Shown here: positions 14,901 through 31,078 of the stretch, piece after piece
How positions within the stretch are numbered: position 1 is the first letter of the stretch
How the letters are laid out: each line of letters begins with the position of its first letter
Source: Methanosarcina sp. MTP4
Lineage (GTDB): Archaea > Halobacteriota > Methanosarcinia > Methanosarcinales > Methanosarcinaceae
Direction of reading: 5' to 3'
Assembly (NCBI RefSeq): GCF_000970045.1
Contig: NZ_CP009505.1
Coordinates: 2,782,808 to 2,814,807 of the forward strand
DNA length: 32,000 nucleotides
The notes under the pieces: model-generated
Told to the model about the DNA's origin: nothing
The model's database searches: none
The model's input: the letters and a program-made list of their open reading frames with translations, nothing else
Made by a program: the position numbers and the translations under genes

Positions 14901-17410
14901 GTGAGCAAAATCCACTAAAACAAGGATTGAAACTTGAAGCCGGTATAGGATGGGCTGAAGAAAATAACGTCCGTGAGCAAAATCCACTAAAACAAGGATT
15001 GAAACGTATTTGGAGACATAACAGCCCGTAATACAGGCATGTCCGTGAGCAAAATCCACTAAAACAAGGATTGAAACCGTAAACGGTGCATCAGGCTACA
15101 CTCTTGAATGCGGTCCGTGAGCAAAATCCACTAAAACAAGGATTGAAACTTTTGTACCATCTGGTACTCGGTCATGAGCCCCATGTCCGTGAGCAAAATC
15201 CACTAAAACAAGGATTGAAACTATGGATACTCCTTTCTTGAAACTTGCGGCGGGGAGTCCGTGAGCAAAATCCACTAAAACAAGGATTGAAACATCATAT
15301 TCATGATTTTCTATTACACACATCCTTAAGTCCGTGAGCAAAATCCACTAAAACAAGGATTGAAACTTCATACAGTCACCCCAAACCAACCAAGAATTTT
15401 TAGTCCGTGAGCAAAATCCACTAAAACAAGGATTGAAACTTGAGATAAAAGACTCTACTCAATTTGAAAACCGGCCAGTCCGTGAGCAAAATCCACTAAA
15501 ACAAGGATTGAAACATGGGAGTTGAAGCTGTTGCCGATGCCATGACCGGGTCCGTGAGCAAAATCCACTAAAACAAGGATTGAAACACAATTTTGAAAAA
15601 TTGCTTGTAATCCATATAAAAAGTCCGTGAGCAAAATCCACTAAAACAAGGATTGAAACTCCGGATTGTTAAGTGTTTTTGTGATTTCTTGTTTTGTCCG
15701 TGAGCAAAATCCACTAAAACAAGGATTGAAACTTCTGTTGTTCAATAGAATGGTAAGAAATTAAATGTCCGTGAGCAAAATCCACTAAAACAAGGATTGA
15801 AACTTCTGTTGTTCAATAGAATGGTAAGAAATTAAATGTCCGTGAGCAAAATCCACTAAAACAAGGATTGAAACGTAACCGAGTTTGAATTGTTGGTCAG
15901 GAAATCATAAGTCCGTGAGCAAAATCCACTAAAACAAGGATTGAAACTAATACCAACCGGTCGCACCTGGCATGTTAGGGAAGTGTCCGTGAGCAAAATC
16001 CACTAAAACAAGGATTGAAACCACAACAGCAATAATAAAATGAGTACCCGGAAACAAGTCCGTGAGCAAAATCCACTAAAACAAGGATTGAAACCACAAC
16101 ACATTATACATCATGGCAATAGTCATACACGTCCGTGAGCAAAATCCACTAAAACAAGGATTGAAACCACAACACATTATACATCATGGCAATAGTCATA
16201 CACGTCCGTGAGCAAAATCCACTAAAACAAGGATTGAAACACATTCTCGATGTCCAACTGTTCCGCCATTCTCCAGTCCGTGAGCAAAATCCACTAAAAC
16301 AAGGATTGAAACACCGTTGTCGCTCCTAACGGCTCCACACAATCAACAGTCCGTGAGCAAAATCCACTAAAACAAGGATTGAAACTGTCACTGTGTCGAT
16401 CTGCAGGACTCCGTTTTTTCCTGTCCGTGAGCAAAATCCACTAAAACAAGGATTGAAACAATAGAGAATTTTTTGATCTGGCGCAAAGTTCTGAAGTCCG
16501 TGAGCAAAATCCACTAAAACAAGGATTGAAACTATAAAAGATATGAAAAATGCGGAGATGGCAGAAAGGTCCGTGAGCAAAATCCACTAAAACAAGGATT
16601 GAAACATTGGTCTTCGGTCAAGGCTTGCTTTTTGAGAGCAGGGTCCGTGAGCAAAATCCACTAAAACAAGGATTGAAACTTCCCTGGGGATTATTATATC
16701 TGGATCTCGTGATCCGTCCGTGAGCAAAATCCACTAAAACAAGGATTGAAACGATACTGTATACATAGCATGTGAGGGAACTTCTAATAAGTCCGTGAGC
16801 AAAATCCACTAAAACAAGGATTGAAACTAATCCAGCAATCGCCCTCAAAAATATGATCAGTATGTCCGTGAGCAAAATCCACTAAAACAAGGATTGAAAC
16901 TAAGTATCAGCGTAAAGATCTGATATAGATTCTAGTCCGTGAGCAAAATCCACTAAAACAAGGATTGAAACAATTTGCATATAAACAATATAATCATTAT
17001 TTCGTTTGTCCGTGAGCAAAATCCACTAAAAAAAGGATTGAAACAAAAAGCGTCCATGTCATCCACCCCTTAAAATTAGTCCGTGAGCAAAATCCACTAA
17101 AACAAGGATTGAAACCACTGAACTAAATCAGCTATCGGAAGATCAATTAAAAGGTCCGTGAGCAAAATCCACTAAAACAAGGATTGAAACTTGATAAGCT
17201 CCTCAATAAAGTCTCGGTAATCCTCAGTCCGTGAGCAAAATCCACTAAAACAAGGATTGAAACTAAGATTAAATCTTCATCTTCAGGTGCTAAAAAAGGT
17301 CCGTGAGCAAAATCCACTAAAAAAAGGATTGAAACTGAATGATATCCTAGAGATAGACGTAGACGGACGAAAGTCCGCGAGCAAAATCAACTAAAAAGGG
17401 GATAAAAAAC
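11906..17410 (+). CRISPR. Main CRISPR array: 76 repeats of 37 nt and 75 spacers of 34-39 nt
   Basis: Repeats were counted by eye (starts 11906, 11980, 12053 ... 17299, 17373). Consensus GTCCGTGAGCAAAATCCACTAAAACAAGGATTGAAAC. Repeats 71 (17008) and 75 (17299) carry C25A. The last repeat (17373-17410) is degenerate: GTCCGCGAGCAAAATCAACTAAAAAGGGGATAAAAAAC. The strand is assigned from the 3' ATTGAAAC (the expected 8-nt crRNA 5' handle), the cas-proximal leader and the distal degenerate repeat. Confidence 0.98.
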
Positions 17411-17558
17411 CTATACTCTCATTTCAATTTTTTAGGGAAAAGCCGTCCGCCTCGCTTCGCTCCGCGGCCGGTGAGAGCGCCGGCACCCAAAAAAGCAATC
17501 CGAAAAAAAGCACCTTTCTTAGTCCACCAGTCACACAAACGCCGCTAGCCTGTCCTCC
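17411..17558. repeat. Array trailer / ATPase 3' flank, copy 1 of a thrice-repeated element with a GC-rich core
   Basis: The sequence ctatactctcatttcaattttttagggaaaagccgtccgcctcgcttcgctccgcggccggtgagagcgccggcacccaaaaaagcaatccgaaaaa recurs nearly identically at 21376-21473 and in diverged form at 22053-22225. On the minus strand it carries T-runs just after the ATPase stop, consistent with an oligo-T archaeal terminator. Confidence 0.7.
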
Positions 17559-18890
17559 TTAGCGACCACTCTTCTCCCCGCCATCCCCCTCAAGCAGCCA
17601 GTACCACAACGGAACATACCTTATTTTCTTCCCTTCAACAAACTCCTCGTCAAAAAGGTCCGATGTGATGATAGTCCCTTCTTTCATTTTGAAGTTCTTC
17701 ATCCCGGCAAGCAGGCCGTTTACCTCGCGTTCTTTTGTTTCCGGGTCGGACAAATTCGAGCAGACCTGTATCAGGCGGGTGGGTTTAAGTCCTTCCTTTG
17801 TTACAAAATCAACCTCTAAGCCCTTCCGGTCCTGCCAGTAGTATATTTCGTTTCCGGAGCGCAGGAGCTGGATGAAGACGAGGTTCTCGTATAATCTTCC
17901 GGTATCGGAGGAAAGCTTGAAAGAAACGGCATTGATCATGCCAGTGTCGATGCAGTATAGTTTCCTGGGTTTGCTCATTTGCCGTTTCAGCGATTCGTCA
18001 TAATGGCTGAGGCCAAAGAGCAGGAAGGCATCTTCAAGGTACGCAATATAATTGATTATTGCATCCGTGCTGAGGGAGGAGTAACTGGCAAACAGTTTCC
18101 TGAGAGAGTTGTAGGTATGCGGTTTTGCGATGTTCGATATGCAGAACAGGGTAAGGTCCTTGAATATCAGGGGATTCCTTATTCCGTGCCTTGAAATGAT
18201 ATCCCGGTAGATGATGTCGTCAAAGTATGACTGCAGGGTTTCCCGGTGCTGAACAGACGGATAGACTATGGTCTCGGGGAATCCTCCTTTTTTCAGGTAT
18301 TCGTTGAACCTGCGTTTGATAACTATCCTTTCTTCTGAGTAAGGGAGGGTTTTCAGATCAAAGCTGACTGAATGATAATCCAGGAATTCCTCAAAGCTGA
18401 AAGGGAACATCCTGGTGCTCAGGTGCCTGCCTGTCAATAAGGTGGATATCTCCTGTGAAAGCAGGGATGCGTTCGACCCGCTGATTACAATCTTCACGTT
18501 CTGCATCCTGTCGTAGCTGCCTTTAACCCACCGTTCCCATGAAGGGAAGTTCTGGATCTCATCAAGGAAAAGGTACAAACGGGCTTCTTCGGAGATCTCC
18601 TGTGTTTCCCTGAAAGTTTCTATCAAGAGCTGCAGTTCATCCCCGTTTAGCGGCTGCAGGCGGTCATCATCAAGGTTCAGGTACAATATATTGCTTTTCG
18701 GCACACCCCGCTCAAGCAGTTCCGAGATCAGCTGATACATATAATATGTTTTGCCGCATCTCCTCACACCCACGATGTCATTTACATGCGGAGCCGCAAT
18801 GTTAACCTCATACCTGCGCTTCTGAAATGGCGGTAATGCTCTTCCCTGCCACTCGATAATTACACTTTTCAGCTTCTCCCTTGTATCCAC
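17559..18890 (-). CDS. AAA+ ATPase of the AAA_14/DUF4143 (COG1373-like) family (443 aa)
   Basis: ORF track, GTG start. Walker A is GVRRCGKTY and Walker B is LFLDEIQ. The C-terminal GLEVDFV block is typical of the DUF4143 (PD-(D/E)xK-like) domain, from memory. Confidence 0.85.
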   Translation of the reverse strand: MDTREKLKSVIIEWQGRALPPFQKRRYEVNIAAPHVNDIVGVRRCGKTYYMYQLISELLERGVPKSNILYLNLDDDRLQPLNGDELQLLIETFRETQEISEEARLYLFLDEIQNFPSWERWVKGSYDRMQNVKIVISGSNASLLSQEISTLLTGRHLSTRMFPFSFEEFLDYHSVSFDLKTLPYSEERIVIKRRFNEYLKKGGFPETIVYPSVQHRETLQSYFDDIIYRDIISRHGIRNPLIFKDLTLFCISNIAKPHTYNSLRKLFASYSSLSTDAIINYIAYLEDAFLLFGLSHYDESLKRQMSKPRKLYCIDTGMINAVSFKLSSDTGRLYENLVFIQLLRSGNEIYYWQDRKGLEVDFVTKEGLKPTRLIQVCSNLSDPETKEREVNGLLAGMKNFKMKEGTIITSDLFDEEFVEGKKIRYVPLWYWLLEGDGGEKSGR

Positions 18891-18925
18891 AAAGAATAAT
18901 CAGGAGTTTTTTGTTTATATAGCTA

Positions 18926-19021
18926 TCGAGTATAGACGATAAAATTTGCATATTTTGTCGTGTATAAATGATAAAATTCAGTAATTTTGTCGTATATAGA
19001 TGACAGGTTTAAAAGATTATA
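18926..19021. promoter_or_regulatory. Three tandem 32-bp units upstream of the ATPase gene
   Basis: The units start at 18926, 18958 and 18990, an exact 32-bp phase. They read TCGAGTATAGACGATAAAATTT, TCGTGTATAAATGATAAAATTC and TCGTATATAGATGACAGGTTTA. A separate TATA (minus-strand TATATAAA, 18914-18921) sits about 26 nt upstream of the GTG start. Confidence 0.55.
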
Positions 19022-19035
19022 TTTTGGAAGGTTAA

Positions 19036-19311
19036 AACAGGGAGTATGGTTTTAGGTCGTGGGAGCTTACTAAAACCCATTGGTTTAAACGCCTCTTTAT
19101 ATTTCTTCCAAAAACGGAATATGCAGTCTTTTCAGATTTGATCAATGATTCACACAGAAACCTGAGCGAAAAAAACCGCTTTTGGGTTGGAGCCAAAGGC
19201 ATAAAATTTTACAAAGCAGACCCCATCACCGAGGAGGAGCGCAGGGAAGCGGAAGAGCTCTGGAAAGCCATGAGCCTGCCCGGGATAAGCAAAGGAAAAA
19301 TCAAGAAATAA
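19036..19311 (+). pseudogene. Open frame of 91 codons with no start codon, possibly a gene remnant
   Basis: Own translation ends ...EYAVFSDLINDSHRNLSEKNRFWVGAKGIKFYKADPITEEERREAEELWKAMSLPGISKGKIKK*. The frame has no ATG or GTG. Its 5' part overlaps the decayed repeat at 19056-19090. No family was recognised. Confidence 0.2.
19056..19090 (+). repeat. Possible heavily decayed CRISPR repeat
   Basis: GTCGTGGGAGCTTACTAAAACCCATTGGTTTAAAC shares ordered blocks with the consensus (GTC-GTG-GAGC, ACTAAAAC, ATTG, AAAC), but the alignment needs several indels. Confidence 0.3.
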
Positions 19312-19333
19312 TGGTGCGAGAAGGGCTTAATTT

Positions 19334-19370
19334 GTCCGCGAGCAAAATCCACTAAAACAAGGATTGAAAC
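19334..19370 (+). repeat. Solitary CRISPR repeat (36/37 identical; T6C variant)
   Basis: GTCCGCGAGCAAAATCCACTAAAACAAGGATTGAAAC has no neighbouring repeat within 240 bp. It lies 140 bp upstream of the lipoprotein ATG. Confidence 0.9.
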
Positions 19371-19509
19371 TAAAGATAGGTTTTATATACAAAAATCATC
19401 CCTTATTAATTTATATAATTAATAAAGAGAGTTATAATAAATTAAATATAATTTTGACAGAATAAAACCCTCCAAAAATTGGACAAATCAAAAGGGTAGG
19501 TGGTAAAAA

Positions 19510-20955
19510 ATGAAATCAAAAATACTATTAGTACTAATTCTGATAGGTATCGTCGCACTTTCAGGATGTACGGATATAAGTGACTCCTATAAACCTGGAA
19601 GTTTCGGAGCCACCGAAGAAGAGCAGCAGATAGTAGACGCAGTAACAGAAAAATACGGCGACATGACGGCCGATGGCGCGCCAAGGCTGCTTGAAGTAAT
19701 GATGACATCATCAACACAGAACTTCATACCTGTCGATAAGGTATTGAAATACTCAAAAGATTCAGAAAAGCTCTACGCATGGTTCATCTACGACAACTTT
19801 GAATACGACATAATAAACGTAGAGTGGATCTACCTTGACAACGATTACTCGATCTACACCTTCGAATCAGAAACAGGCGAAGACTTTGGACGTGGAACAT
19901 TCATACTCGAGAAGCCAGATGACGGCTGGCCACTTGGAGATTATAAGGTAATTATAAGTGGAGCAGGAGTGCAAGAATCTGTCGAGTTCGAGATAATAGA
20001 CGGAGCGACAGTCTCAATACCACTGGATCTGCTGGACGGTACAACAATGGGCAGCCAGCAGGAAGATTTCGGAAGCACAGGAACAACTGACGCAATACCA
20101 ACTCCACAGAGTGGTTTCAGATCTGAAAGCACATCACACAGTTTCGTAGGAGAATGGAGTTCAAACTGGGGTGATATGACATTCACACAATCTGGAAATA
20201 AGATCGTCGGTGAGTACACACACGACAAGGGAAGACTTGAAGGTGTTATTAACGGTGACGTATTCATAGGAACCTGGTCCGAAAGCCCTTCATACTCAGT
20301 ACCAAACGATGCAGGTGATGTGGAACTCAAACTGAGCAAAGACGGTAATTCATTCGAAGGAAACTGGAGATACGGCTCAGATAGTTCATCATGGAGCGGT
20401 GGCTGGACAGGAAGCAGAGCAGGACAATCAACAGCCTCAACATCATCAGGCGTAACACCTGGCTGGTATCTCATAGAAGTTGAAGACTACAGTGAGGTGG
20501 GCGACCGCGACACATTCAGTCTCGAATACAAAAGAGGTAATGTCCTAACTATTAAAACATCATCAGATGGCGATAAAACATTACAGATAAGAACAGTCAG
20601 TGAAGAAGCAAAAGACTTCTATGCTGCTGAAGAAGAGATTGCTATCAAAGTAAGAAAAGAAGGCGCACTAATAGCAACTGGTAACCTCGGAATGTCTGAT
20701 TCGAGCCATATTAACATAGATATGGCAGATATTAGACCCGGTGGGACCACAGCAGGCGGTTATTCCCTGGAAGATGAAACATATGGGGATCTCTTCACGA
20801 TGGACTGGCAAGATTCAACTGGCGACGTCAAAGAAGGCATATTCAAAGCAAATGTACCGGGAGCAAAAGCACATGGTGGATCATTTGCAATAATTTACAC
20901 ATACTACAATGGCGAAATATACGGAACAAAATACATTTACGAATGGAGAGAGTAA
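19510..20955 (+). CDS. Secreted lipoprotein-like protein of unknown function (481 aa)
   Basis: ORF track. GGTGGT lies 6 nt upstream of the ATG. Signal peptide with a lipobox-like LSGC (MKSKILLVLILIGIVALSGCTD). The mature part is Gly/Trp/Ser/Thr-rich, with repeated G.W motifs. Confidence 0.75.
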   Translation: MKSKILLVLILIGIVALSGCTDISDSYKPGSFGATEEEQQIVDAVTEKYGDMTADGAPRLLEVMMTSSTQNFIPVDKVLKYSKDSEKLYAWFIYDNFEYDIINVEWIYLDNDYSIYTFESETGEDFGRGTFILEKPDDGWPLGDYKVIISGAGVQESVEFEIIDGATVSIPLDLLDGTTMGSQQEDFGSTGTTDAIPTPQSGFRSESTSHSFVGEWSSNWGDMTFTQSGNKIVGEYTHDKGRLEGVINGDVFIGTWSESPSYSVPNDAGDVELKLSKDGNSFEGNWRYGSDSSSWSGGWTGSRAGQSTASTSSGVTPGWYLIEVEDYSEVGDRDTFSLEYKRGNVLTIKTSSDGDKTLQIRTVSEEAKDFYAAEEEIAIKVRKEGALIATGNLGMSDSSHINIDMADIRPGGTTAGGYSLEDETYGDLFTMDWQDSTGDVKEGIFKANVPGAKAHGGSFAIIYTYYNGEIYGTKYIYEWRE

Positions 20956-21117
20956 TTCTCTACCATTCCTTTTTTCTTTTCTTTTAGATTTCCATAAAAC
21001 TGAGTGGGCAGATCAGTCTCTTGACTTTTAAGAACAAAAAGCAATAGCATACGCTTTAGGGTTAATGAAAAGAGATAGAAATGTGGTCACAAGGTATGAA
21101 GTTTTGAGTACATCGGT

Positions 21118-21375
21118 GTCCGCGAGCAAAATCCACTAAAACAAGGATTGAAACCAAGACGTTGACCGATTCCCACGCAATGCAGTTTCTGTCCGCGAGC
21201 AAAATCAACTAAAACAAGGATTGAAACTTCAGGATCAACTGAAAACGCCTCAATATCTCTAAACTGTCCGCGAGCAAAATCCACTAAAACAAGGATTGAA
21301 ACATCAAAATTGGAAAAGATGTTAATAGAGAAATTGCAGTCCGCGAGCAAAATCAACTAAAAAGGGGATAAAACA
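21118..21375 (+). CRISPR. Mini-array 2: four repeats (C6 variant, last one degenerate) and three spacers of 36-38 nt
   Basis: Repeats lie at 21118-21154, 21191-21227 (also C18A), 21266-21302 and 21339-21375. The last is degenerate and nearly identical to the terminal repeat of the main array. All carry GTCCGCGAGC. Confidence 0.9.
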
Positions 21376-21473
21376 CCTATACTCTCATTTCAATTTTTTA
21401 AGGAAAAGCCGTCCGCCTCGCTTCGCTCTGCGGCCGGTGAGAGCCCCGGTACCCAAAAAGCAATCCGAAAAAG
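21376..21473. repeat. Trailer element copy 2
   Basis: ctatactctcatttcaattttttaaggaaaagccgtccgcctcgcttcgctctgcggccggtgagagccccggtacccaaaaagcaatccgaaaaa is near-identical to 17411-17510. Confidence 0.8.
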
Positions 21474-21542
21474 GAACACAATTATATTCTTAATGGCAGG
21501 TAAACTGAGTTAACCACACGATGTTAATGAGAACCATTTTAT

Positions 21543-21737
21543 CTATTTAGTCAGCTTTTCCACTATCAAAAGAAAATTTACTTTAGCAGTAGCTCCCATG
21601 AGTTGAAATGTAGGTTTAACATTGGGAATAATCGTCACAACTTCTCCTTCTAGATTATTCAAAAATTGCTCTAATCTCACCTGGTCCTTATCCATGTCGA
21701 TGTCGAATCGATGTACTTTGTATTTTATAATAGTCAT
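21543..21737 (-). CDS. Small hypothetical protein (64 aa from ATG 21737; the track gives 68 aa from a TTG)
   Basis: ORF track frame. MTIIKYKVHRFDIDMDKDQVRLEQFLNNLEGEVVTIIPNVKPTFQLMGATAKVNFLLIVEKLTK. No family was recognised with confidence. Confidence 0.45.
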   Translation of the reverse strand: MTIIKYKVHRFDIDMDKDQVRLEQFLNNLEGEVVTIIPNVKPTFQLMGATAKVNFLLIVEKLTK

Positions 21738-22052
21738 TATATCACCCAACTATGTTATTTTTATAAGTATTCCATTTTATTCAACCGCTCAGCAACATTA
21801 AATTTGTCATTTTTATATGCATTTGCCTCTTATTACTAACAATTATTGGTTTTTCAATTTCTATACAGGTAAAGTGAGGTGTGCAGATGCATTAAGCAAA
21901 CCGGAATACTGGAGAGAATAAGAATCCAGTAAGCTTATAGGACCCCGGTATCAAGCTCTCGAAACCAAATTTTCCGCTCCCCGGCTTCGTATAAAAAAAG
22001 GTGTTGAGATGCTTTTATTCTCGTTTATTCTCTTATTCTTTTTTATTTTCCT

Positions 22053-22225
22053 GAAAAAGCCGTCCGCTTCGCTGCGCTCTGCGGTCTGTGAGAGCTCCGG
22101 TACCCAAAAAGCAGTCCGAAAAAACGCAGCTATTTCTTAGTCCGCCAGCCACACAAACGCCGCCATAATATCCTCCTCCCCGACCAACCCTGTGGCGTGT
22201 CCTTTTCCTCCCGTATCCCCAAACC
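22053..22225. repeat. Trailer element copy 3 (diverged), including a remnant of an ATPase-gene 3' end
   Basis: gaaaaagccgtccgcttcgctgcgctctgcggtctgtgagagctccggtacccaaaaagcagtccgaaaaaacgcagctatttcttagtccgccagccacacaaacgccgcc aligns with 17438-17547. Weaker similarity continues into the last roughly 40 nt of the ATPase ORF (tcctcct..cgaccac..tcccc). Confidence 0.6.
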
Positions 22226-22232
22226 ATACTAT

Positions 22233-22492
22233 GTCCGGTAACTGAGGAAAAAATCCACCTTAAAAGGGCTGAAACAAAAAATTATACACTTTGAGGTATG
22301 CATTTTTTCCTGGTCCGTGAGCAAGATCCACTAAAACAAGGATTGAAACCCGGGTTAACAGCCGCAGCCGTGAAAGATGATCTGTCCGTGAGCAAGATCC
22401 ACTAAAACAAGGATTGAAACTTGTGGGCGGTATCGATATTAGGGTTATGGATGTAGTCCGTGAGCAAGATCCACTAAAACAAGGATTGAAAC
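22233..22492 (+). CRISPR. Mini-array 3: one indel-laden repeat plus three intact repeats (A13G variant), with three spacers
   Basis: The decayed copy is GTCCGGTAACTGAGGAAAAAATCCACCTTAAAAGGGCTGAAAC (22233-22275). Intact copies GTCCGTGAGCAAGATCCACTAAAACAAGGATTGAAAC lie at 22313-22349, 22384-22420 and 22456-22492. Spacers are 37, 34 and 35 nt. Confidence 0.85.
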
Positions 22493-22740
22493 ACCGGGTT
22501 TCTCGGCTTCTTCAACCTGATCCATGAAAGGTTGGAATACATCTCAAATCGATAAAACCTGGTTTTTTCTAAAGCATCGGAAGTCCTGGATACCAAATCC
22601 TCTTCGTTCCTGACCTGCCCATTGGAATACGAATAAATCAGAAAAACAGAGATCAGGATAATTATTACAAGAATTATCGTGAATCTACCTTAAAGACCGT
22701 TTTGTGTAATTTTTCTCATGTTCGCATTCTCTTTCTTTAT

Positions 22741-25700
22741 TCACATTTTCTTTTTTAAAACATATGCAGCTCCCAACCCCGTCAGTAAGATTATCATGGC
22801 TACTGCCAGGTAGAACCATATGGATTGGGTTTCAGGGAGAGTATCTGTTTCTGCTGCCGCAGGAGTTTCTTTTGAAGTATTTTCCGGGCTTTCCAGAGGT
22901 GCCTGAACGTCTTCAACTGTAATGTTCTCATCCTGGCTTTCTTCATCCGTGATTATAGGGATTCTGCGGTGCCCGTCATGGGGTGGAACCACAGGCTCCT
23001 TTATTTCACTGCCTGAAAGCCCGTACAGGCTGAGATGAGAGACATTTGCCCAGGCGTATCCCTCGTATTCTTTGCCGTAAATGACATCATTTGTGGTATT
23101 TACTCCGACATCGTTTACCCAGTCCATATCAGTTGACAGTTTCTCCCATTCTCCTGATAATTCATTGAACCAGGAAATGCCTATGGATTTCTCATTGATA
23201 TCCCCTAGGTCATTCGAATAACCATCACCGGTCCTGTCGAGGTCTTTAGCAGTATAATAAATAACAATCTTTGCCCAGTCTATATTGTCTGCCGTAGCGT
23301 TCAGGATATTTTCACTGACATTTATGTCCAGAGATTTCCCAACATCCTTTTCATTCACCTGAGCCAATACGTGCGGAAAATCTGTTGAGTTGTGGGCTCC
23401 CAGTCTGACAGTGGGTTTAACAGGTTTTTCAAGTTCGATCCATACAAAGGCATCCATCTCTTTGACAGCATCAACAGTTATCGAGCTCACAGGTGTCTGG
23501 TATTCTATAGTCTGGTTAAGGGTCTTGAAAGAATCCAATACGGCGTAGTGGTCGAAAACATAGGGATTGGAGAGCATCACAACTGTCTGGGGCGAGGTCC
23601 AGATGTCATAGGTGGTATAGAACCTGTCAAAGTCCGATTCCTGCATCTTTGCCAGCTCATCCGGCGCCAGGCTATTCAGGATGCTGTGGGTTATATTGCC
23701 AGCAGTGCTGTTTTCAAGCCCCGGTCTTCCAACGATCAGGATGTACGGCTTGGTTGAATAATTTGCCAGTTCTTCCGGCTGGAATACTGTGACATTAGTG
23801 TATTTATTAAGATTTTCTATGAAGTTCCCGGAATCTTCATCCGGATCACAGGTCATCCAGATATCGTCCACGTTTGGAGCCAGTGAATAGGGATCTTCTG
23901 AGTCGTTGATGCCATTACCCCTCGTATCGCCGAATACCGGGTTTGTGCCGTTCTGGAGTTCGGAATAGTCATCGAGACCGTCCCCATCGGTGTCGTTGTT
24001 CAGGGGGTCCATCCAGTTTTCAATTTCCTCTTTGTCGCCGACACCGTCCCCATCCGTATCGTTAAGCAGCAAACTGGTATTATACAGGCTCTCATTACCA
24101 TCGTCCAGACCGTCCCCGTCGGTATCAGGGTTTCGGGGGTCGCTACCCTGATTATATTCTTCCCCATCGGATAGCATATCCCCGTCAGAATCCGGGGAAA
24201 GCATGCTCGAGTTAAATGCGAGTTCTTCGGAGTCACTAAGCCCGTCTCCGTCGGTGTCTCTATCTCTTGGATTGGAGTAATTCAGATACTCATAGTAATC
24301 CGATAACCCATCGCCATCGGTATCATTTAGCCAGGGGTCGGTTCCAAATATCATTTCAAGGTTATCATCCAAGCCGTCGCCCTCGCTGTCATAACCTTTA
24401 ATGTTCGTCCCGAGCACCCATTCAACATAATCTGTCAACCCATCATCGTCTGTATCCACATCTCTGGGATTTGTATAGAAGTTGAACTCCTGGTAATCAG
24501 TAAGTCCGTCATAATCGGTGTCATTGATCAAAGGTTCACTTGTCACGCTTACATAAAAGACACCGGTTGAATTTACAAAGGACACAACATTCCAGCCGGT
24601 CATTTCGTCAATGTTCTTCAGACCGTCCCCATCCGTATCACTATCGGGGTCAAATATGTCCGGAGGGTAGTAGACCAGTGTTTCATTGAACTTCTGGATG
24701 ACATTGTTCGTCTCATCTGCAACATAGACAGAGCCATCCGGACTGACCCCAATTCCCCACGGTCCTTCAAATTGCCCGTCGAACGAACCCTGGCTGCCCC
24801 ATGTCACTAAGAACAAACCATTGGTGTCAAATCCTAAAATCCGGTGGTTATCACGGTCCGATACAAAAATATTTCCTTCTGAATCCGCACTCATTCCATA
24901 AGGGGAGGAAAAAGTCCATGGTGGATATCCGGGGATCGATCTGATAAAAAGACCATTGTTAGAGAACTTCTGAATGCGATCGTTACCCAGGTCAGCAACA
25001 TATACATATCCATTGGAATCTGTTGCAATCCCACTCGGATAATTGAACTTTCCATTCCCGGTTCCCTGCCCTCCCCATTGTATGCCAGTGTAGACACAGT
25101 TAGCATAGTACTTTTTCACCAGATGGTTCACAGCATCAGTGAGATATAAATAGCCGTTTTTATCGCTTGCCACGTCGTATATTGGGGTGGCAAAACTGGC
25201 AGTTTTCGATAGATAGTTACCATTCAAATCGTACACAAAAACTCCGTTATATCCGCCATAGGGGTCTGCCATGGCAACAGCAACGACGTTATAGATATCA
25301 TCTGCAATTCCATAACCATAATACGGTATCGTCCAGCTTTTTATAAAGGTCCCATTGGGATCGAATTTTTGAACACGGTTCCTGTCAAGGACATATACAT
25401 TTCCGGTCTGGTCAACTCCAGCGTCACGGCAGTGATCAAACTCTCCGTTCCCTGTTCCCTGGCTGCCCCATTTAGTAACGAACTCCATGGCAGTAACAAG
25501 TTTTGGATTTGCCACATCGTTATTTCCATCACCGTCAGTATCCTTTGACCTTGGATTAAGATTGCTGTAGTATTCCATCTGGTCATCCAGGCCATCGCCG
25601 TCCGTATCGTTCAAAAGCGGATTTGAGCGCACGGGTATGTTGATTGTCTTGCCGTCAAAGTTGAAGGTGATCGCCCATCCGGTTTGTTCCATGTAGTCTG

Positions 25701-28584
25701 AAAGTCCGTCGCCATCAGTGTCCCAGCTCGACGTATTGGTGCCGTAGAAAAGCTCCATTTTGTCATTCAATCCGTCCTGGTCAATGTCCCAATTATTTGG
25801 ATCTGTCTCGATGTCCAGTTCGTATTTATCACTCAACCCGTCCCCGTCAGTATCCCATTTCATCATGTCGGTAACCGTTTCTTCCGAGTCGTTCAGACCG
25901 TCGCCATCGCTATCCAGAGGATAGGGGTTTGGCGGCATATCCAGGGTAAAACACCAGTCCTCATTTCCAAGTATGCAGATCTTATAGACCATATGGGCCC
26001 AGTCCTTGAAATCTTCAATATTTTCGGGCAGCACGTCAAAATAAACAGTAGGGATTTTAAGGGACTGGGAACCCGTTTTTTCCCTATCGTATGTATGCCA
26101 TCTCATATCCCATTCTATTTTTTCTTCGATGTAATAGTATTTGTAGTCAACTTTAAAGATGGCTCCCTGCCCGAAATTGATGGTTGGTCTTACAGGCTCC
26201 AGCCATGCCCTGGCATCATATGTTGTATTTGTTGAGTCAGGATACTTCGGGTCATATGAAACAACATCAGTAAACTCATCGTATGAGGCAAAATACGAAT
26301 TCTTCCACAGTAAAGTATATGATGGGATAACATAACTTTTCTCAACGTGTCTGTACCAGTCGCCGTATTCGGTTTTTGTTACTGTGGAATTTACAAGGCT
26401 CTGGAACTCTACATGATCCCCCACATCCAGCCCGTTATCGTCATAATCCCGAATGTTTATTGAGTTTTTCAATATTTGCATATCGACTGTAGTTGCAATA
26501 TGCGTTTCCATGAAAAGTGCCACAAGTTTTCCAATCAGATCTGCAACACCATGTCCAAATATGCTGGCTATAGCATCAGCTACCATTATGATAGCAGCAA
26601 TTACCTCACCTATTGGTCCTGCTAGCAAAAGCACTGCAAGTATCACAAGATAGATGGTCATTGCAGTAATATAGACGGTTGCCTGTAAAGTTGAACCGCT
26701 ATCCAAAAATATTATGAAACCGACAACTGCAAAAGCGGCTTCAAGTGCAAGTGCTGCAAAAGTAACGACCTTACCTGCGACTTTCAGGGCATTTATTGTT
26801 TTAGTGGCTGCCTGCGCAGCTGCTTTTACACTTGCTCCGATCGTTACTTTGATAGCACCCCATAGGGCTTTTCCAAATCCGACCAGCTTGATCGAGGTGA
26901 ACAGATATACACCAAAAATGGCGAGCTTTATTGTGGGCGTCAGATAACTGAATCCATCTGCTTTAATTTTAGCTTTCACATCCATTGCATTATGGAAACT
27001 GGTATATGCCCCGTTTAGCCTGGTCACCACAGATTCACCGAAATTCCATAAAAGCGCCATGCTCATCATGGAATTAATTGCATCTTCATCAAGCCCGTTT
27101 GCCTGTCCCCAACTTTCCACTTCAGGCAAAAAGGACTCCACGCCAACACTTTCTTTCGTGGTGGTATCATACCAGCTCATCTTGATTGTTTTCATGGTAA
27201 CGGCGGGAGAGGGGGAAGCCGTCAGGTCGAAATCAAATTCGTTTCCGTTGACGCACACATCACCAGAAACAAGGTCATCGATGCCCTTACTGGTAAAATT
27301 GAATTGATAAGCGGCAAGTAATGGCAGTATCTTATTTCCTGGTAATGATTTGAGTGCATGCTCTTTCATTTCCGATGTAGTGTTAAAAACTGCCATATCC
27401 CGATGAGAGACCGATCCGATCTCGGAATTTATGGTCAGATTCGAATCCATTAACGCGGCAGGCATATCATATAATGTCGTCTGGTTGTCCCGGAGATATG
27501 AAAAGGCCATTAAAAACCCTGCCAGCAATGTCTGGTTCACACTGTCCCCGTAGAACATACCAACATCAGTACCATAGTTCTCTTCAACCTCAAAGCCTGT
27601 TAGCATACACCCTTCTTTGTATTTGGCAAGGGTAACAGTTTCAGATTCTATCCCCCCTGCAGTCATTTTATCGGTCTTTCCCTGCAGCAACCAGACAAGG
27701 CTCGCATTAATAGAAATATCTGAAGGATCTGATGCCGGGTAGAACATCCTGCCCCCAAAAGCAACGTTTGTGCCATAGTCCTTTATGAGTGTCAGGGGAA
27801 TGTACAGGCTGTCAGAAGAAACCACAATACCATATTCCAGCAAATCAGCCTGGTCAGGGATCACGTTCGATCTTAATTCGAGCATGGGAATGATTTTGAT
27901 GTCATCAGTTGAATCATCCAGGTCCTTCATCTGACCTTTATCATCGTATGGCCAATCCCAATCCTGCAACGGCAACCTCAAATTGTCAGGATTCCGGGGC
28001 TTTATCTGGAATGTGACATATGTAGGGTTTCCATTTGTCCTTATATCAAAAAGGAAGCTGTCATTAATACCGGAATGTGAGTATGGGGACAGGTCTATTG
28101 AGTCCATCACTTTATCGTCATCGTTGTCAAGGTCCCATACATTTGAAAACCCATCCCCATCAGCATCAAGGGAGTCGACGTCTGTCACTTCAAAGTAATC
28201 CGACAGCCCGTCATGATTTGAATCCGGTTCAAGCGGGTCCGACTCATAGAAAACTGATTCATTATAGTCGTCCAGCATGTCAAAATCAGAATCTGTGTTA
28301 TTAAAGTCAGTTCCAAGAACAGCCTCAACAGAATCGGGTAGTCCGTCTTTATCGGTGTCAGTTTTGTTTGTTGAAACATCTATAAGCCCGACTATGTCCA
28401 GATTGGTGTTTATCTGGTTCTGAACACTAAGTTGAGACACCATTGCCAGAGCAGCAGCAGTGCCTGTTGAAATGTAAGAAGGTTCTTGAACTGATTCCTG
28501 GCTACTTGATGCGGCTGCCGGGTAGAACTGGGCAGCTAATAAGATAAGGATGATCACCAGGTTATAAGGTTTACATCTTCGCAA
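22741..28584 (-). CDS. Giant surface protein (1947 aa). It has a signal peptide, many thrombospondin-type-3-like Ca-binding repeats, an NHL beta-propeller region, a central cluster of TM helices and a C-terminal TM anchor.
   Basis: ORF track. TTG start, with GGTGGT 6 nt upstream. There are dozens of D.D.DG..D..E motifs ([10 protein letters not shown] and similar). NHL-like repeats: [71 protein letters not shown]. A hydrophobic block spans about aa 545-700. The C-terminus reads [26 protein letters not shown]. Confidence 0.9.
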   Translation of the reverse strand: [1947 protein letters not shown]

Positions 28585-28711
28585 AGCTAACCACCAACCC
28601 TATTATAGATTATGAAAAGTCAATATATAAAGAAGTTGTCATTTTTTTTCAAAACGAACTCATCTTCAAGATTAAATGTGCGGAGTTTTCAGTTTATAAA
28701 AACATTTATAT

Positions 28712-28748
28712 GTCTGCAATCAAAATCCACTAAAAAAAGGATTGAAAC
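28712..28748 (+). repeat. Solitary CRISPR repeat (32/37; the 3' 28 nt has one mismatch, the C25A variant)
   Basis: GTCTGCAATCAAAATCCACTAAAAAAAGGATTGAAAC lies in the divergent intergenic region between the giant gene and the UbiA gene. It ends 55 nt upstream of the UbiA ATG. TATA-like TTTATAAAAA (28693-28702) and TTTATATG (28705-28712) lie immediately upstream. Confidence 0.8.
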
Positions 28749-28754
28749 TCCGTA

Positions 28755-28785
28755 TACTCAATAGTTGGGCTGCAAATATTGAGTA
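28755..28785 (+). promoter_or_regulatory. Perfect 9-bp hairpin in the UbiA 5' region
   Basis: TACTCAATA (28755-28763) pairs with TATTGAGTA (28777-28785), leaving a 13-nt loop. It sits between the solitary repeat and the RBS. Confidence 0.5.
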
Positions 28786-28803
28786 AATTGTGAGAGGAAC
28801 GTT

Positions 28804-29655
28804 ATGTTTAAAACAAGAATGATAGGCCTGTTTCGCTTATTCCGTTTTGAACTGCCATTTGCTGCGGGAGTGTGCGTGGTATTGGGGGAATTACTGGCAT
28901 TGGGCGAACTCCCCACCACAACAGAAATCGTACTGGGGTTTCTAAGCTTTTTTTTCATTTCGGCTGCGGCTCTGATCCTGAATGACTATTTTGATGTAGA
29001 AATTGACAGAATAAACGCGCCGGAAAGGCCGCTCCCTGCAGGGCTTGTTACCGGGCAGGATGTCGTTTTACTTTCCATTGCAGTGACAGGGCTTGGATTT
29101 ACCACGGGCTACCTGATTAGCCTGGAGGCTTTGTTAGTAGTTATTTTAGTATGGGCAGTTGGTTTTCTTTACAACTGGCGGTTCAAAAGGGCTGGTTTTA
29201 TTGGAAATCTGATGGTCAGCTTTTCGGTTGGCATGACTTTTGTTTTTGGCGGCATAGCAACAGGCAGACCATTTGAAACTATAGTCTGGTTTTTCGCGGT
29301 CATAGTAATGCTCGTAGACCTGGGAGAGGAAATTGCGGCAGATGCTATGGATATCGAAGGGGACCGCCAGGCAGGGTCCCGTTCCCTTGCCCTGGTACTT
29401 GGACGCGAAAACGCCTTGAAAATTAGCGGAGCGATTTTCTTACTGGTGATTGTTGCAAGTATCCTGCCGTTTTTCCTGGGCTGGTTAGAGTTGATTTATC
29501 TGTTTCCCATTTTACTGATGGATGCGGTTATTCTGTACTCAACCAGTAAATTGTTAGATTCGAGAATAGTAAATCGGCGAATTTATATCCGCTGGATATA
29601 CCTGAGTGGGTTGGCGGCATTCTTAATTTTCATAATCATTCGAATGCTCAGCTGA
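28804..29655 (+). CDS. UbiA-family prenyltransferase (DGGGP-synthase-like paralogue, 283 aa)
   Basis: ORF track. First Asp-rich motif NDYFDVEIDRINAPERPLPAG, second DAMDIEGDRQAG. Hydrophobic multi-TM protein. Confidence 0.9.
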   Translation: MFKTRMIGLFRLFRFELPFAAGVCVVLGELLALGELPTTTEIVLGFLSFFFISAAALILNDYFDVEIDRINAPERPLPAGLVTGQDVVLLSIAVTGLGFTTGYLISLEALLVVILVWAVGFLYNWRFKRAGFIGNLMVSFSVGMTFVFGGIATGRPFETIVWFFAVIVMLVDLGEEIAADAMDIEGDRQAGSRSLALVLGRENALKISGAIFLLVIVASILPFFLGWLELIYLFPILLMDAVILYSTSKLLDSRIVNRRIYIRWIYLSGLAAFLIFIIIRMLS

Positions 29656-29691
29656 AAGTCCGGTGGCAGTTTGATCCTGAGCCGCCCAGCA

Positions 29692-29830
29692 CCGCTTGCA
29701 GCGGACAGGTGCGGGAATTCAACCAGGCTTTCGGGGATTCTGCCCCGGCGGTGGATTCGGCATCCGATGGTTTTCCCTCAAAATTCCCCCCTGGTAATGC
29801 CTGCCGTTAAGCGGCAGCTCCACCTGTCCG
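29692..29830. ncRNA. GC-rich element with nested helices (candidate structured RNA; strand undetermined)
   Basis: Helices read directly. CGGACAGGTG 29702-29711 pairs with CACCTGTCCG 29821-29830 (10 bp, perfect). GGGAATT 29713-29719 pairs with AATTCCC 29782-29788. CGGGG 29732-29736 pairs with CCCCG 29743-29747. CTGCCG 29801-29806 pairs with CGGCAG 29812-29817. An alternative hairpin CCGCT/AGCGG spans 29692-29704. The region is markedly more GC-rich than its flanks and no family was recognised. Confidence 0.35.
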
Positions 29831-29834
29831 GCTG

Positions 29835-29871
29835 ATTCGAGAGCAAGGTCCACTAAAACAGGGCCTGGAAC
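29835..29871 (+). repeat. Diverged solitary CRISPR repeat (28/37)
   Basis: ATTCGAGAGCAAGGTCCACTAAAACAGGGCCTGGAAC keeps the central GAGCAA..TCCACTAAAACA core intact but has different termini. It lies 4 nt after the outer helix of the GC-rich element and 10 nt before the stop of the minus-strand membrane gene. Confidence 0.6.
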
Positions 29872-29880
29872 TTTATAGGT

Positions 29881-30174
29881 TTATTCGACTTCTATTTCCA
29901 GACCACCAATGAATCCGGCTGCTACGTTATATATGAAGGCTGTGATGATACCGCCAATGAAACCTAAAATTCCATAGAAGATGGGTAATGTTATGATAGC
30001 TCCTGTCCCTAACAGCAGACCCGCTAACGCCCCCTCGTTTCCCATTATGGACCCCATCCCCATGGACGTGAGAGTCATTATAGCTCCGAATATAAGGCCC
30101 ATTATTGCGTAAATCGCTCCAAGGATCTTTCCAAGTGATAACACACCGATTTTAGTAATACGTCTGGTTGCCAC
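29881..30174 (-). CDS. Small glycine-zipper-rich integral membrane protein (97 aa)
   Basis: The ORF track frame runs 29881-30213 from a TTG. I prefer GTG 30174, because AAGGAGG (complement of 30183-30189) lies 8 nt upstream. There are three predicted TM segments, including GAIYAIMGLIFGAIMTL and GILGFIGGIITAFIY. Confidence 0.65.
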   Translation of the reverse strand: MATRRITKIGVLSLGKILGAIYAIMGLIFGAIMTLTSMGMGSIMGNEGALAGLLLGTGAIITLPIFYGILGFIGGIITAFIYNVAAGFIGGLEIEVE

Positions 30175-30434
30175 AGTATAAACCTCCTTAAATAGTATTA
30201 TAGAAGAGATCAAGAAAATATAAAAAGTTATTCTATATGTTTTTGTTGTCAGGTTGTTTTGCTATTTCTCAGATATTTGCCGAATTGAACTATAGATGAA
30301 AAAAGGTATATTCCTCAATTCAATACTTTATATAGAAACTTATATTCTGCAGGTCGACATTAAAATTTGAACATTTTTTATTGATGTCGCTTTTGAATCA
30401 AATATCCCTAATTGAAATCCCCTTGCAAGGTTTA

Positions 30435-30471
30435 CAATATTCCAATAATCCACTAAAACAAGGATTGAAAC
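30435..30471 (+). repeat. Solitary CRISPR repeat with a decayed 5' third (3' 25 nt identical to consensus)
   Basis: caatattccaatAATCCACTAAAACAAGGATTGAAAC. A perfect 25-nt match cannot be chance. Confidence 0.75.
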
Positions 30472-30481
30472 AGAGTATCAA

Positions 30482-30658
30482 ATCAAGAATTTATTCTCTG
30501 GAATAGATAAGATATTCCATAATTAATGTGAACAATGGAAACAAAATACTCAAAACGACAGATGTATCTTTTCCGATACTGGTTATTCCGAGAATGAAAA
30601 ATACAATAAATCCTAAAGTGAGTGCCTGTAAGGTTCCAAAGATGTAAAAAAGGTTTCT
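30482..30658 (-). CDS. Candidate small two-TM membrane protein (58 aa, GTG start, probably leaderless)
   Basis: Below the track cutoff. Own translation: VQNRNLFYIFGTLQALTLGFIVFFILGITSIGKDTSVVLSILFPLFTLIMEYLIYSRE*. The TATA box at 30681-30688 is centred about 26 nt upstream of the GTG. Confidence 0.3.
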
Positions 30659-30680
30659 GTTTTGCACATTGTCAAATAAA

Positions 30681-30688
30681 TTATTAAA
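30681..30688. promoter_or_regulatory. TATA box (TATATAAA) positioned for divergent leaderless transcripts
   Basis: Its centre is about 26 nt from GTG 30658 on the minus strand and about 25 nt from ATG 30709 on the plus strand. Confidence 0.3.
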
Positions 30689-30708
30689 GTATATAAAACC
30701 TGGTGATC

Positions 30709-30870: not shown

Positions 30871-31078
30871 ATTTACTAAGAAATTATACTTTTTAGCAAA
30901 TAAATATATATAACAAACAAAAGAATTAATATATGTAAAAATATTTTGTACATTTTAAAAAGGTGCGGGAATTTGCAAGAATAATTATAAGGTGTGGAAG
31001 CTGGCATTTGTTCGGAAACGTTAACAAAGTTGCTAAAAAAACAGGATTTGGTAATTAAAGATCTACTACAGGTAAAAA

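Follow-up and report, generated by a model that had tools for sequence, protein, structure and literature searches.

CRISPR repeats scattered downstream of a type I-B array in Methanosarcina sp. MTP4 evidently act as borders at which gene blocks are deleted, swapped and, once, inserted, as judged from alignments with related loci. We analyzed a window of 32,000 nt from this genome (W) and compared it with related loci, designated by L-numbers. We consider it probable, with some reservation, that the region represents a CRISPR field, fragmented and in part still active, in which gene blocks undergo homologous recombination by way of the co-oriented repeats.

The window carries a type I-B cas operon on the plus strand (3178-11779), which was recognized by NCBIfam and Pfam matches and contains cas8b, cas7, cas5, cas3, cas6b (9164-9832), cas1 (9820-10791), cas2 (approximately 10790-11100, assigned from its reading frame) and cas4 (11108-11779). 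The csa3 gene is located on the minus strand (2351-2953; NCBIfam/Pfam). The main CRISPR array (11906-17409, plus strand) comprises 76 repeats of GTCCGTGAGCAAAATCCACTAAAACAAGGATTGAAAC and ends with a degenerate copy (17373-17409, 29/37). An ungapped scan and nhmmer confirmed this terminal repeat as well as most of the further copies listed in the initial annotation. These are the solitary repeat 19334-19370 of the GTCCGCGAGC... variant (36/37), whose sequence equals that of repeat 21118; mini-array B (21118-21375) with repeats at 21118, 21191 and 21266 (35-36/37) and a degenerate fourth at 21339 (28/37); mini-array C of the GTCCGTGAGCAAGATCC variant (22313-22492) with three repeats at 22313, 22384 and 22456 (36/37); the solitary repeat 28712-28748 on the 5' side of a UbiA-family gene (32/37); an old solitary repeat of the ATTCG... 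type at 29835-29871 (28/37; nhmmer E=3e-6); and a 5'-truncated solitary repeat at 30435-30471 (27/37, with the 3' 25 nt exact), whose truncation is identical in L002, L003 and L005. All confirmed copies except 17373, 21339 and 29835 reached the gathering score of Rfam CRISPR-DR7. Decayed copies were judged by their gapped score against 1413 control windows, which yielded a maximum of 28. The copy proposed to precede mini-array C held up, with a score of 32 for 22233; it precedes the opening repeat of array C by 37 nt and is kept in all copies of its module. The candidate at 19056-19090 (plus strand) was rejected, as its score of 19 was below the 95th percentile of the controls and nhmmer did not match it. 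All supported copies are on the plus strand, and neither the ungapped scan nor nhmmer revealed a minus-strand copy in the window. The constant polarity of repeats throughout the gene gaps was thus corroborated for every copy claimed but 19056. Five of the seven one-gene blocks that had been proposed are credible (ATPase, lipoprotein, 1947-aa protein, UbiA and 110-aa protein); the '64-aa ORF' is not a gene, and the gap 30668-31302 contains no repeat copy.

The repeat-interleaved layout is genus-wide. In 17 Methanosarcina loci, all of which have genes between repeat copies, we counted 62 solitary copies and 18 mini-arrays, none of them on the minus strand; nhmmer returned 401 plus-strand matches versus three minus-strand matches at chance level. 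The identity to the array consensus falls with distance from the array, the Spearman rho being negative in five of five loci, none individually significant. We are left with very little confidence that the region merely combines three ordinary nearby arrays, chance repeat-like matches and normal trailer decay. Loci with several arrays are common, degenerate terminal repeats are expected, and the claimed copy 19056 is not significant. However, the matches at 28712, 29835 and 30435 are significant, and other species possess orthologues of these copies, a single polarity holds across 80 solitary copies or mini-arrays, genes separate the copies in all 17 loci, and junctions were located at nucleotide resolution. 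This reading is largely refuted. The architecture is non-random, and the splitting of one simple array does not account for it, because it includes three repeat variants and two different leaders. In L004, two repeat variants are interleaved, which runs counter to our preferred reading, since a single fossil array does not predict them. In L011, a DDE transposase lies between two array halves.

One rearrangement concerns the 1947-aa surface protein gene (22741-28584, minus strand; TSP3 and NHL repeats according to Pfam). In L093, the 6.2-kb block with this gene is absent and a single chimeric repeat is found in its place. The chimera follows the repeat that precedes the 1947-aa gene in its left flank and 5' part, and repeat 28712 with the UbiA leader in its 3' part and right flank. 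The alignment shows that the block was deleted in L093 through recombination between its two flanking repeats. A replacement distinguishes W from L003, the differing stretch beginning within repeat 19334 and stopping where repeat 22456 starts. The ATPase gene (17559-18890, minus strand; 443 aa, AAA_14/DUF4143 in Pfam) is conserved across L001, L003, L004 and L093; its left neighbor differs in each. Its 3' end overlaps T1, a copy of a trailer module (parts a, b and c; 17410-17568, plus strand; repeat families D9, D10 and D13, and alignment) that is a recurrent breakpoint between strains, at W17556-17564 versus both L001 and L003. Altogether, a repeat is located within 10 nt of 19 of the 46 homology ends, compared to 10.3 expected (p=0.003); this enrichment of breakpoints at repeats is moderate, and the events are not phylogenetically independent. 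Resolution at the nucleotide level refers to one deletion and one insertion only.

The crossover points also bear on the resemblance to integrons noted previously, that is, on a site-specific cassette system with a dedicated recombinase acting on the repeats. The likeness, one-gene blocks split by a constant, co-oriented site, is formal only. Crossovers occurred at varying positions within the repeat (approximately 24 in L003 and 8-24 in L093), as in homologous rather than site-specific exchange. Moreover, no tyrosine or serine recombinase was present among the window ORFs searched, the genes occupy both strands with upstream regions and promoters of their own, and folding of the repeat gave a 5-bp Cas6b hairpin as the sole structure, not an extended imperfect palindrome of the attC kind. 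We therefore disfavor such a system and consider it exceedingly improbable.

Units bordered by repeats also change their surroundings. The UbiA-family prenyltransferase gene (28804-29655, plus strand; Pfam) is preceded by a conserved 5' region (28749-28803, plus strand) with a 9-bp hairpin (TACTCAATA...TATTGAGTA; alignment and fold). In four other species (L004, L005, L010 and L011), the repeat-UbiA-repeat unit keeps both repeats next to differing neighbors, and homology stops at the repeats at eight of eight ends. The block with the 110-aa membrane protein gene (29881-30213, minus strand) is found in L005, another species, on the other, upstream side of UbiA together with the same two repeats. 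The expectation that relatives gain, lose and reorder blocks whose ends coincide with repeats was thus borne out by the L093 deletion, the UbiA unit and the 110-aa block.

The UbiA locus also bears on an account in which solitary copies are kept as RNA or promoter elements, be it as Cas6b processing sites, as crRNA-like regulators of the CreA, crlRNA or SRU type, or as parts of promoters or 5' UTRs of adjacent genes, with the cassette appearance as a by-product. The 3' 25-nt remnant of repeat 28712, consisting of the Cas6b hairpin and the 8-nt handle, and the next 55 nt are recognizable 5' of UbiA in nearly all aligned Methanosarcina loci, where other intergenic DNA is unalignable. Several copies are cut down to the 3' 25 nt alone, the 3' 25-31 nt of the same repeat also occur on head-tail virus contigs, as in the truncated copy 30435, and the hairpin of repeat 29835 is kept, in a shifted register, despite five substitutions (fold). 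Furthermore, a regulatory role of standalone repeats in cas loci is known (PMC10120712; bioRxiv 2024.12.27.630466). On the other hand, pseudo-spacer seed matches were zero both within 4 kb and elsewhere in the window, the hairpin upstream of UbiA is destroyed in L004 and a whole species clade, 3'-truncated copies exist too, and the lipoprotein promoter lies downstream of repeat 19334. Such a function would also leave the breakpoint coincidences unexplained, and we consider this account rather unlikely. Nevertheless, the remnant in nearly all aligned loci and the retained 29835 hairpin suggest that some copies are under selection and are not mere relics.

The single insertion involves the lipoprotein block (19371-21112, plus strand), which contains a lipoprotein gene (19510-20955) preceded by a TATA-containing region of its own. 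Outside the species, the nearest proteins are from Methanolobus, with 71-79% identity over the full length. Nucleotide homology to L090 begins at 19371, the first base past repeat 19334, which forms the left border of the block. On the right side, an extra 33-nt match (21068-21100) scored 46 versus a shuffle maximum of 32, so that homology reaches to 5-17 nt short of repeat 21118. The block was, on this comparative evidence, horizontally acquired from a Methanolobus-like donor, and its junctions have an apparently spacer-like geometry in this one case. It may thus be asked whether blocks are giant spacers, kb-long DNA inserted with duplication of the repeat by Cas1-Cas2(-Cas4) or by repair of its staggered nicks at repeat ends. 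Foreign DNA starts right after one repeat and ends shortly before the next, both flanking repeats are identical 37-mers, adaptation genes are present, a nearby array is acquiring spacers, and the chance of both junctions lying so near within a 73-nt period is roughly estimated at 2%. Against this stand the single case, the placement of the right junction only to 5-17 nt, since identity to the sampled donor is just 81%, and the lack of a recognizable leader 5' of repeat 19334. The known Cas1-Cas2 complexes gauge the length of their prespacers, the repeats on either side of older blocks are dissimilar, and homologous recombination with a donor segment already flanked by repeats would yield the same picture. 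Capture of long DNA with the aid of Cas1-Cas2 is a minority possibility, and we assign giant spacers a low probability.

Between mini-arrays B and C lies no gene but a duplicated trailer/leader module. Mini-array B has no recognizable leader and contains one internal spacer fewer than in L001. It is followed by T2 (parts a and b; 21376-21472, plus strand), which shares 96% identity with T1 (D10; alignment). A 573-nt segment inserted between two partial module copies (21473-22045) is conserved in L001, L003 and L004 and shows no sign of a gene; its 68-aa ORF matches no family. Module M (22046-22312, plus strand), the leader of array C, includes T3 (parts b and c), the decayed repeat (22233-22275), and a 37-nt fossil spacer that carries a TATA-like AAATTATACA approximately 27 nt upstream of the first array C repeat. 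The '64-aa ORF' (22033-22227), previously counted as a gene block, lies on this leader-like, repeated non-coding module, and its translation is of low complexity. L004 has three copies of module M, each followed by one or two repeats. Neither spacer of mini-array C is shared with a strain of 98.6% identity (W versus L002 and L001); this mini-array is evidently turning over spacers actively.

According to the homologous recombination model, the region would be the distal portion of a Methanosarcina type I-B CRISPR locus, broken up into a chain of copies that keep the array polarity. The chain would run from the long active array through the leaderless, decaying mini-array B and the leader-bearing, spacer-exchanging mini-array C to four old solitary repeats, with cellular and horizontally acquired genes presumably inserted at or beside repeat borders. 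As the copies are co-oriented, any two could serve as 37-bp homology for recombination, although efficient homologous recombination normally calls for more than 37 bp, which counts against the model. Recombination between two copies would delete the intervening DNA, presumably as a circle with one repeat, and the same process would permit replacement and re-insertion at other repeats. The leader/trailer module of approximately 300 nt would play the same role on a larger scale. The circular intermediates and the chemistry of insertion are inferred, and some solitary copies may still be transcribed and cut by Cas6b.

Several known systems share features with this locus. Integron cassette arrays likewise consist of serial single-gene units with a recurring co-oriented site, units being lost and reordered, but the window has neither an integrase among the ORFs searched nor an attC-like site or a common promoter, its genes occupy both strands, and crossovers are variable. 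Standalone repeats and mini-arrays (Shmakov et al. 2023, PMC10120712), CreA/CreTA and crlRNA/SRU (bioRxiv 10.1101/2024.12.27.630466) are extra-array copies enriched beside type I loci, including I-B, often partly degraded and in some cases conserved in related genomes. Those lie within or beside cas operons and have a pseudo-spacer matching a nearby promoter, whereas here 4-11 copies per locus, all of one orientation, extend over more than 13 kb among non-cas genes, the window revealed no cis target for crRNA-like regulation, and copies coincide with ends of structural variants. Viral solitary repeat units and mini-arrays, along with RNA anti-CRISPRs (PMC10651486), recall the head-tail virus contigs, but no block is recognizable as a virus or plasmid, and the copies are ancient and sit in the chromosome. 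Casposon or Cas1-mediated integration also leaves a long insert with a duplicated target on either side, in our case the 37-nt repeat (19334 and 21118); the lipoprotein block, in contrast, lacks Cas1-solo, PolB and a terminal inverted repeat, and a role of the integrase is suggested by geometry only. Spacer loss by inter-repeat recombination (Kupczok et al. 2015, PMC4524480) uses the same direct-repeat substrate and removes the intervening DNA. The internal spacer loss in array B is a classical instance, whereas the units deleted or exchanged here are kb-sized gene blocks rather than 36-nt spacers and their repeats are solitary and diverged. The 'long spacers' of that study, insertion sequences in arrays, are likewise kb-sized DNA between two repeats, as in L011, but the blocks in the window (ATPase, lipoprotein, surface protein, prenyltransferase and small membrane protein) carry no transposase. 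Integration of mobile elements via solitary repeats was proposed, rather than demonstrated, by Faure et al. (2019), as summarized in PMC8616872, and would yield repeat-flanked insertions. The initial suggestion of undescribed biology thus needs narrowing, as repeat-mediated recombination is known for spacer deletion and solitary-repeat integration had already been proposed; what may be new is at most the scale, the cellular-gene cargo and a possible role of the integrase.

Repeat copies in the window were located by an ungapped scan, by Rfam, and by an nhmmer profile. The main CRISPR array (11906-17409) comprises 76 copies of the 37-nt repeat GTCCGTGAGCAAAATCCACTAAAACAAGGATTGAAAC and ends in a degenerate terminal repeat at 17373. 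To its right, we found a solitary repeat at 19334, mini-array B (21118-21375) with repeats at 21118, 21191, 21266, and 21339, the final copy being degenerate, mini-array C (22313-22492) with repeats at 22313, 22384, and 22456, and three further solitary repeats at 28712, 29835, and 30435. The copy at 30435 is 5'-truncated and keeps the 3' 25 nt alone, in exact form. Rfam scored the copies at 17373, 21339, and 29835 below the gathering score. All of these repeats lie on the + strand, and none of the three methods returned a minus-strand copy in the window, which upholds the constant polarity described in the initial annotation. A regular period of ~73 nt with unique spacers (type I-B; Rfam CRISPR-DR7) characterizes the main array and mini-arrays B and C; the copies at 19334, 28712, 29835, and 30435 are solitary and show no regular array period.

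Two further, decayed copies had been proposed. The one at 22233 was confirmed: with a gapped score of 32 it outscored all 1413 control windows, it lies one spacer length 5' of array C, and it is kept in every copy of the module to which it belongs. The one at 19056 scored 19, under the 95th percentile of the controls, and was dropped. The 64-aa ORF that had been counted as a gene block sits on a repeated non-coding module and was dropped as well. The repeats of the window fall into three variants, namely that of the main array, a GTCCGC variant (19334 and array B), and an AAGATCC variant (array C), and the copy at 29835 is of an older ATTCG type. Because of these three variants and the older copy, the layout cannot be explained as one recently and simply split array.

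Subtype-matched cas genes adjoin the arrays, with Cas6b and Cas1-Cas2-Cas4 all present. The type I-B cas operon (3178-11779) consists of cas8b, cas7, cas5, cas3, cas6b, cas1, cas2, and cas4, so ordered that cas6b stands between cas3 and cas1 and cas4 comes last; csa3 is divergent. GC3 is uneven across the operon, with 0.29-0.35 in cas8b, cas7, and cas3 versus 0.57 in cas1, and this composition may reflect a mosaic origin of the effector and adaptation modules. An RNase III-like gene (1270-2037, - strand, 255 aa) adjoins csa3; its product scored 148 bits against the bacterial-type RNase III model, under the curated cut-off of 166. To derive the PAM, 340 spacers were compared with the fetched DNA, including seven viral loci, and no protospacer turned up. 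The window also encodes a DUF1699 protein. Upstream of and overlapping the start of its gene, an A-rich 15-17-nt unit (AAAAAAATAAAACGG) is repeated in tandem (31037-31316), and this tandem array differs in length between the window and the relative L003.

To place the window among its relatives, loci were fetched with the UbiA gene (28804-29655); the close relatives found were all Methanosarcina contigs. Across 17 Methanosarcina loci, nhmmer detected 62 solitary copies and 18 mini-arrays (2-6 repeats each), all of them in the direction of the array and of UbiA. In total, 401 + strand matches stood against three minus-strand matches at chance level (E>2). Some loci (L004, L010, and L011) carry more than 10 copies over 10 kb, and the genes among the repeats of the relatives are ordinary ones, for permeases, a GNAT acetyltransferase, a cupin, a DNA alkylation repair protein, and an acyltransferase. 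In all five of five loci, identity to the consensus of the resident array tends to drop with distance from that array, with no single correlation being significant. A transposase occasionally divides an array in the relatives, and in L011 one lies between repeats. 'Long spacers' have been described as transposon insertions (PMC4524480); no block of the window carries a transposase gene, and an array interrupted by transposons was rejected as a description of them for that reason.

Strains were compared to see whether the gene blocks between the repeats change as repeat-bounded units, and this was borne out for a deletion, a replacement, the UbiA unit, and a reordering. The deletion was found in L093, a locus 95.7% identical to the window, which is without array C and the 1947-aa surface protein gene (22741-28584, - strand). 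A single repeat remains at the junction. Its left flank and 5' bases (ATTCG) equal the repeat standing before the 1947-aa gene in both L003 and the window, and its 3' part (AAAAAAAGGATTGAAA) and right flank equal repeat 28712 and the UbiA leader. The parental repeats are mismatched at seven positions, and the 1947-aa block is present in L004, which is more distant than L093. We conclude that the block was deleted by recombination between two solitary repeats. An assembly join in L093 was discounted because the exact matches between the parental repeats (15 and 12 nt) are too short. The replacement distinguishes the window from L003: the exchanged segment begins at position 24 of repeat 19334, ends where repeat 22456 starts, and measures 3.1 kb in the window versus 323 nt in L003.

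The repeat-UbiA-repeat unit is kept in L004, L005, L010, and L011, where homology stops at the repeats at 8/8 ends and UbiA has other neighbours in every species. As for the reordering, the block of the 110-aa membrane protein (29881-30213, - strand) lies downstream of UbiA in the window and upstream of it in L005, where it is flanked by the orthologue of repeat 29835 and by the same 5'-truncated repeat. In L003, the 3' half of that truncated repeat (L003:11634-11670 versus 30435-30471) is of the 29835 type (CAGGGCCTG), which suggests gene conversion between the two repeats flanking the 110-aa block. The trailer end of the main array of L093 (L093:2382-2857) holds eight copies of an older variant (GTCCACGGGCAAAATCCATT...), and in L005 the solitary repeat that precedes UbiA is nearly identical to this variant. 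These sequences would fit a former position of UbiA directly after the terminal repeat of an array.

Over the compared loci, 19 of 46 homology ends fell within 10 nt of a repeat, with 10.3 expected for random intergenic positions (p=0.003). This count comes from a restricted automated test, which replaced an earlier version that we disregarded because of HSP ends made by masking, array interiors that inflated the null, and divergence-driven HSP ends that swamped the rearrangements. Not every change conformed to repeat-bounded exchange. The 3' end of the ATPase gene (17559-18890, - strand) is a repeat-free breakpoint inside module T, with four different left neighbours (window, L001/L003, L004, and L093), and UbiA itself was deleted in L093 without involvement of a repeat.

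The repeated non-coding module occurs in part and in full. One part, T (~160 nt), comes after the degenerate last repeat of both the main array and array B; the full form, M (22046-22312), is the leader of array C and precedes it. A piece of the ATPase 3' end (17515-17568) is duplicated within module M at 22133-22186 with 81% identity. At its 3' end, module M consists of the decayed repeat and a 37-nt fossil spacer with a TATA-like motif, followed by the first repeat of array C. L004 contains three copies of module M, each followed by one or two repeats, and L003 contains one copy followed by a single repeat. The GC-rich repeated module had also been considered as a tRNA-derived attachment site; this was rejected, since there are no tRNA genes and Rfam gives CRISPR-DR7 only. 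The related locus L002 is 98.6% identical to the window and colinear with it over 21324-32000 apart from the spacers of array C, both of which differ. As these spacers differ between near-identical strains, array C is a live array with its own leader. No leader was recognizable for array B, whose sole difference between the window and L001 is the loss of an internal spacer, which is a classical repeat-by-repeat deletion.

The lipoprotein block (gene at 19510-20955, + strand) records a gain. The protein is identical to MSMTP_2125 of Methanosarcina sp. MTP4, and the other fetched Methanosarcina loci lack a homologue of it. Outside MTP4-like strains, its best full-length relatives are from Methanolobus (71-79% identity), where the gene stands in ordinary chromosomal contexts free of CRISPR repeats. 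Nucleotide homology to the Methanolobus locus L090 (81%) starts at 19371, the first base past repeat 19334, and takes in the gene's own upstream region with the TATA-like TTTTATATAC. In L090, the bases CTA stand directly before the homologous segment. The similarity fades past the stop codon and resumes at 21068-21100 (29/33; score 46 versus a maximum of 32 in 500 shuffles), with weaker similarity to ~21112; repeat 21118, which is identical to repeat 19334, begins 5-17 nt further on. The junctions are the same in three independent assemblies (L001, L093, and L094). Block junctions of this kind were assessed on one block, the sole one young enough, with the left border exact and the right border within 5-17 nt. 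Two further loci offered no closer donor: L095 (86% protein identity) shares the coding region only, and the homology of L092 starts later than that of L090. Within the gene, a 360-nt segment (20088-20446) is missing from L093 and L094, which carry a 358-aa allele; an in-frame gain or loss of a repeated domain probably explains the difference.

Judged by its borders, the lipoprotein block has the geometry of a 1.7-kb-long spacer. Insertion at repeat borders could account for it, with either the Cas1-Cas2 integrase or repair of staggered nicks made by Cas1-Cas2 as the mechanism. Homologous recombination with a molecule that already bore the lipoprotein block between repeats fits the same junctions equally well. 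That CRISPR adaptation, through its enzymes or through the breaks these leave at the edges of repeats, captures kilobase foreign DNA as 'giant spacers' is in our view improbable. If it does, the distal array would be a gene-acquisition site, and its co-oriented repeats would allow cassette-like excision, exchange, and reshuffling of the captured genes. The block provides a concrete natural case for the question of whether the spacer integrase takes long DNA.

Standalone repeat-like sequences are enriched in or near CRISPR-cas loci and act as regulators (PMC10120712; bioRxiv 10.1101/2024.12.27.630466). The solitary copies might accordingly be kept as putative RNA or promoter elements, a partial explanation that does not exclude recombination, and the evidence for it is mixed. 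Upstream of UbiA, the 3' 25-nt remnant and the next 55 nt are recognizable in nearly all loci aligned, within intergenic DNA that cannot be aligned. Several copies in different genomes are cut down to exactly this 3' unit, although 3'-truncated copies exist too. The unit also occurs, as one copy or as a mini-array, on contigs of head-tail viruses that encode terminase, portal, and capsid. Repeat 29835 keeps a hairpin in a shifted register despite five substitutions, but L004 and one whole clade have lost the Cas6b hairpin from the copy upstream of UbiA. In that clade, the remnant lies ~30 nt before the start codon and could act as a promoter sequence. Covariation of the hairpin over 84 repeat variants was set aside as evidence, since detection itself favours conserved copies. 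The pseudo-spacers after the solitary repeats speak against a guide function, as searches for their targets came back empty, both across the whole window at a threshold of 13/16 and, with a 12-nt seed, within 4 kb, where chance predicts ~0.007 seed matches per pseudo-spacer. Regulation in cis by crRNA-like molecules (CreA, crlRNA, or SRU type) was rejected on this ground.

A separate 9-bp hairpin (TACTCAATA...TATTGAGTA) at 28755-28786, formed by the 55 nt between that remnant and the UbiA start codon, is conserved across species (L003-L011, L008, and L050) and could be a regulatory RNA element. L008 shows an apparently compensatory change in it (ACC...GGG). UbiA-family homologues with 66-76% identity occur in MAGs of Anaerolineae, Calditrichia, and Ignavibacteria (L014, L018-L031), which suggests inter-domain transfer of the gene; the upstream regions of the bacterial relatives have neither repeat nor hairpin. 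The contig L016 bears the label Clostridiaceae; with its Methanosarcina CRISPR repeats, it is probably mis-binned. On viral contigs, the 3' 25-31 nt of the repeat were found at L089:1-92, L086:3277-3307, L085:1255-1283, and L087:2759-2785, two of these contigs encoding terminase, portal, and capsid; the L089 repeat forms a mini-array with a different 5' part. These copies resemble solitary repeat units belonging to Methanosarcina viruses. Such units have been proposed to serve for the integration of viral genomes into arrays (summarised in PMC8616872).

CRISPR arrays are usually viewed as stores of 30-40-nt spacers. Here, in a chromosomal region found genus-wide, the repeat has turned into punctuation between ordinary genes, and nucleotide-level evidence shows that repeats are the sites at which gene blocks disappear, are exchanged, and, in at least one case, arrive from another genus. 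On this view, CRISPR repeats would promote genome plasticity and the horizontal acquisition of genes, beyond immunity. Recruitment of repeats as promoter or RNA-processing elements can be tested on the ancient solitary copies, among them the one whose remnant is recognizable in nearly all loci. The layout had been annotated correctly in the main and its interpretation in part. Recombination at repeats, taken there as potentially undescribed biology, is the accepted route of spacer loss (repeat-by-repeat; PMC4524480). For gene blocks, the literature searches turned up no report in which co-oriented repeats alternate with cellular genes through many kilobases and in a whole genus, or in which such repeats are the sites of block deletion or insertion.

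The likeness to an integron cassette array did not hold. An integron has an adjacent integrase (a tyrosine recombinase) with an attI site; here no integrase or other recombinase family was found among the window ORFs searched, a set that left out two 90-aa ORFs at the left edge; crossover points are variable. An integron attC site is a long imperfect inverted repeat, whereas the repeat here folds into a 5-bp hairpin only (AAUCC/GGAUU; -3.3 kcal/mol, z=-0.33), followed by the 8-nt handle AUUGAAAC. Integron cassettes are co-oriented and mostly promoterless, in contrast to the genes on both strands found here and to the lipoprotein gene with its own upstream region. We rate the region as a set of CRISPR repeat relics and mini-arrays that serve as recombination substrates, extended to gene-sized cargo.
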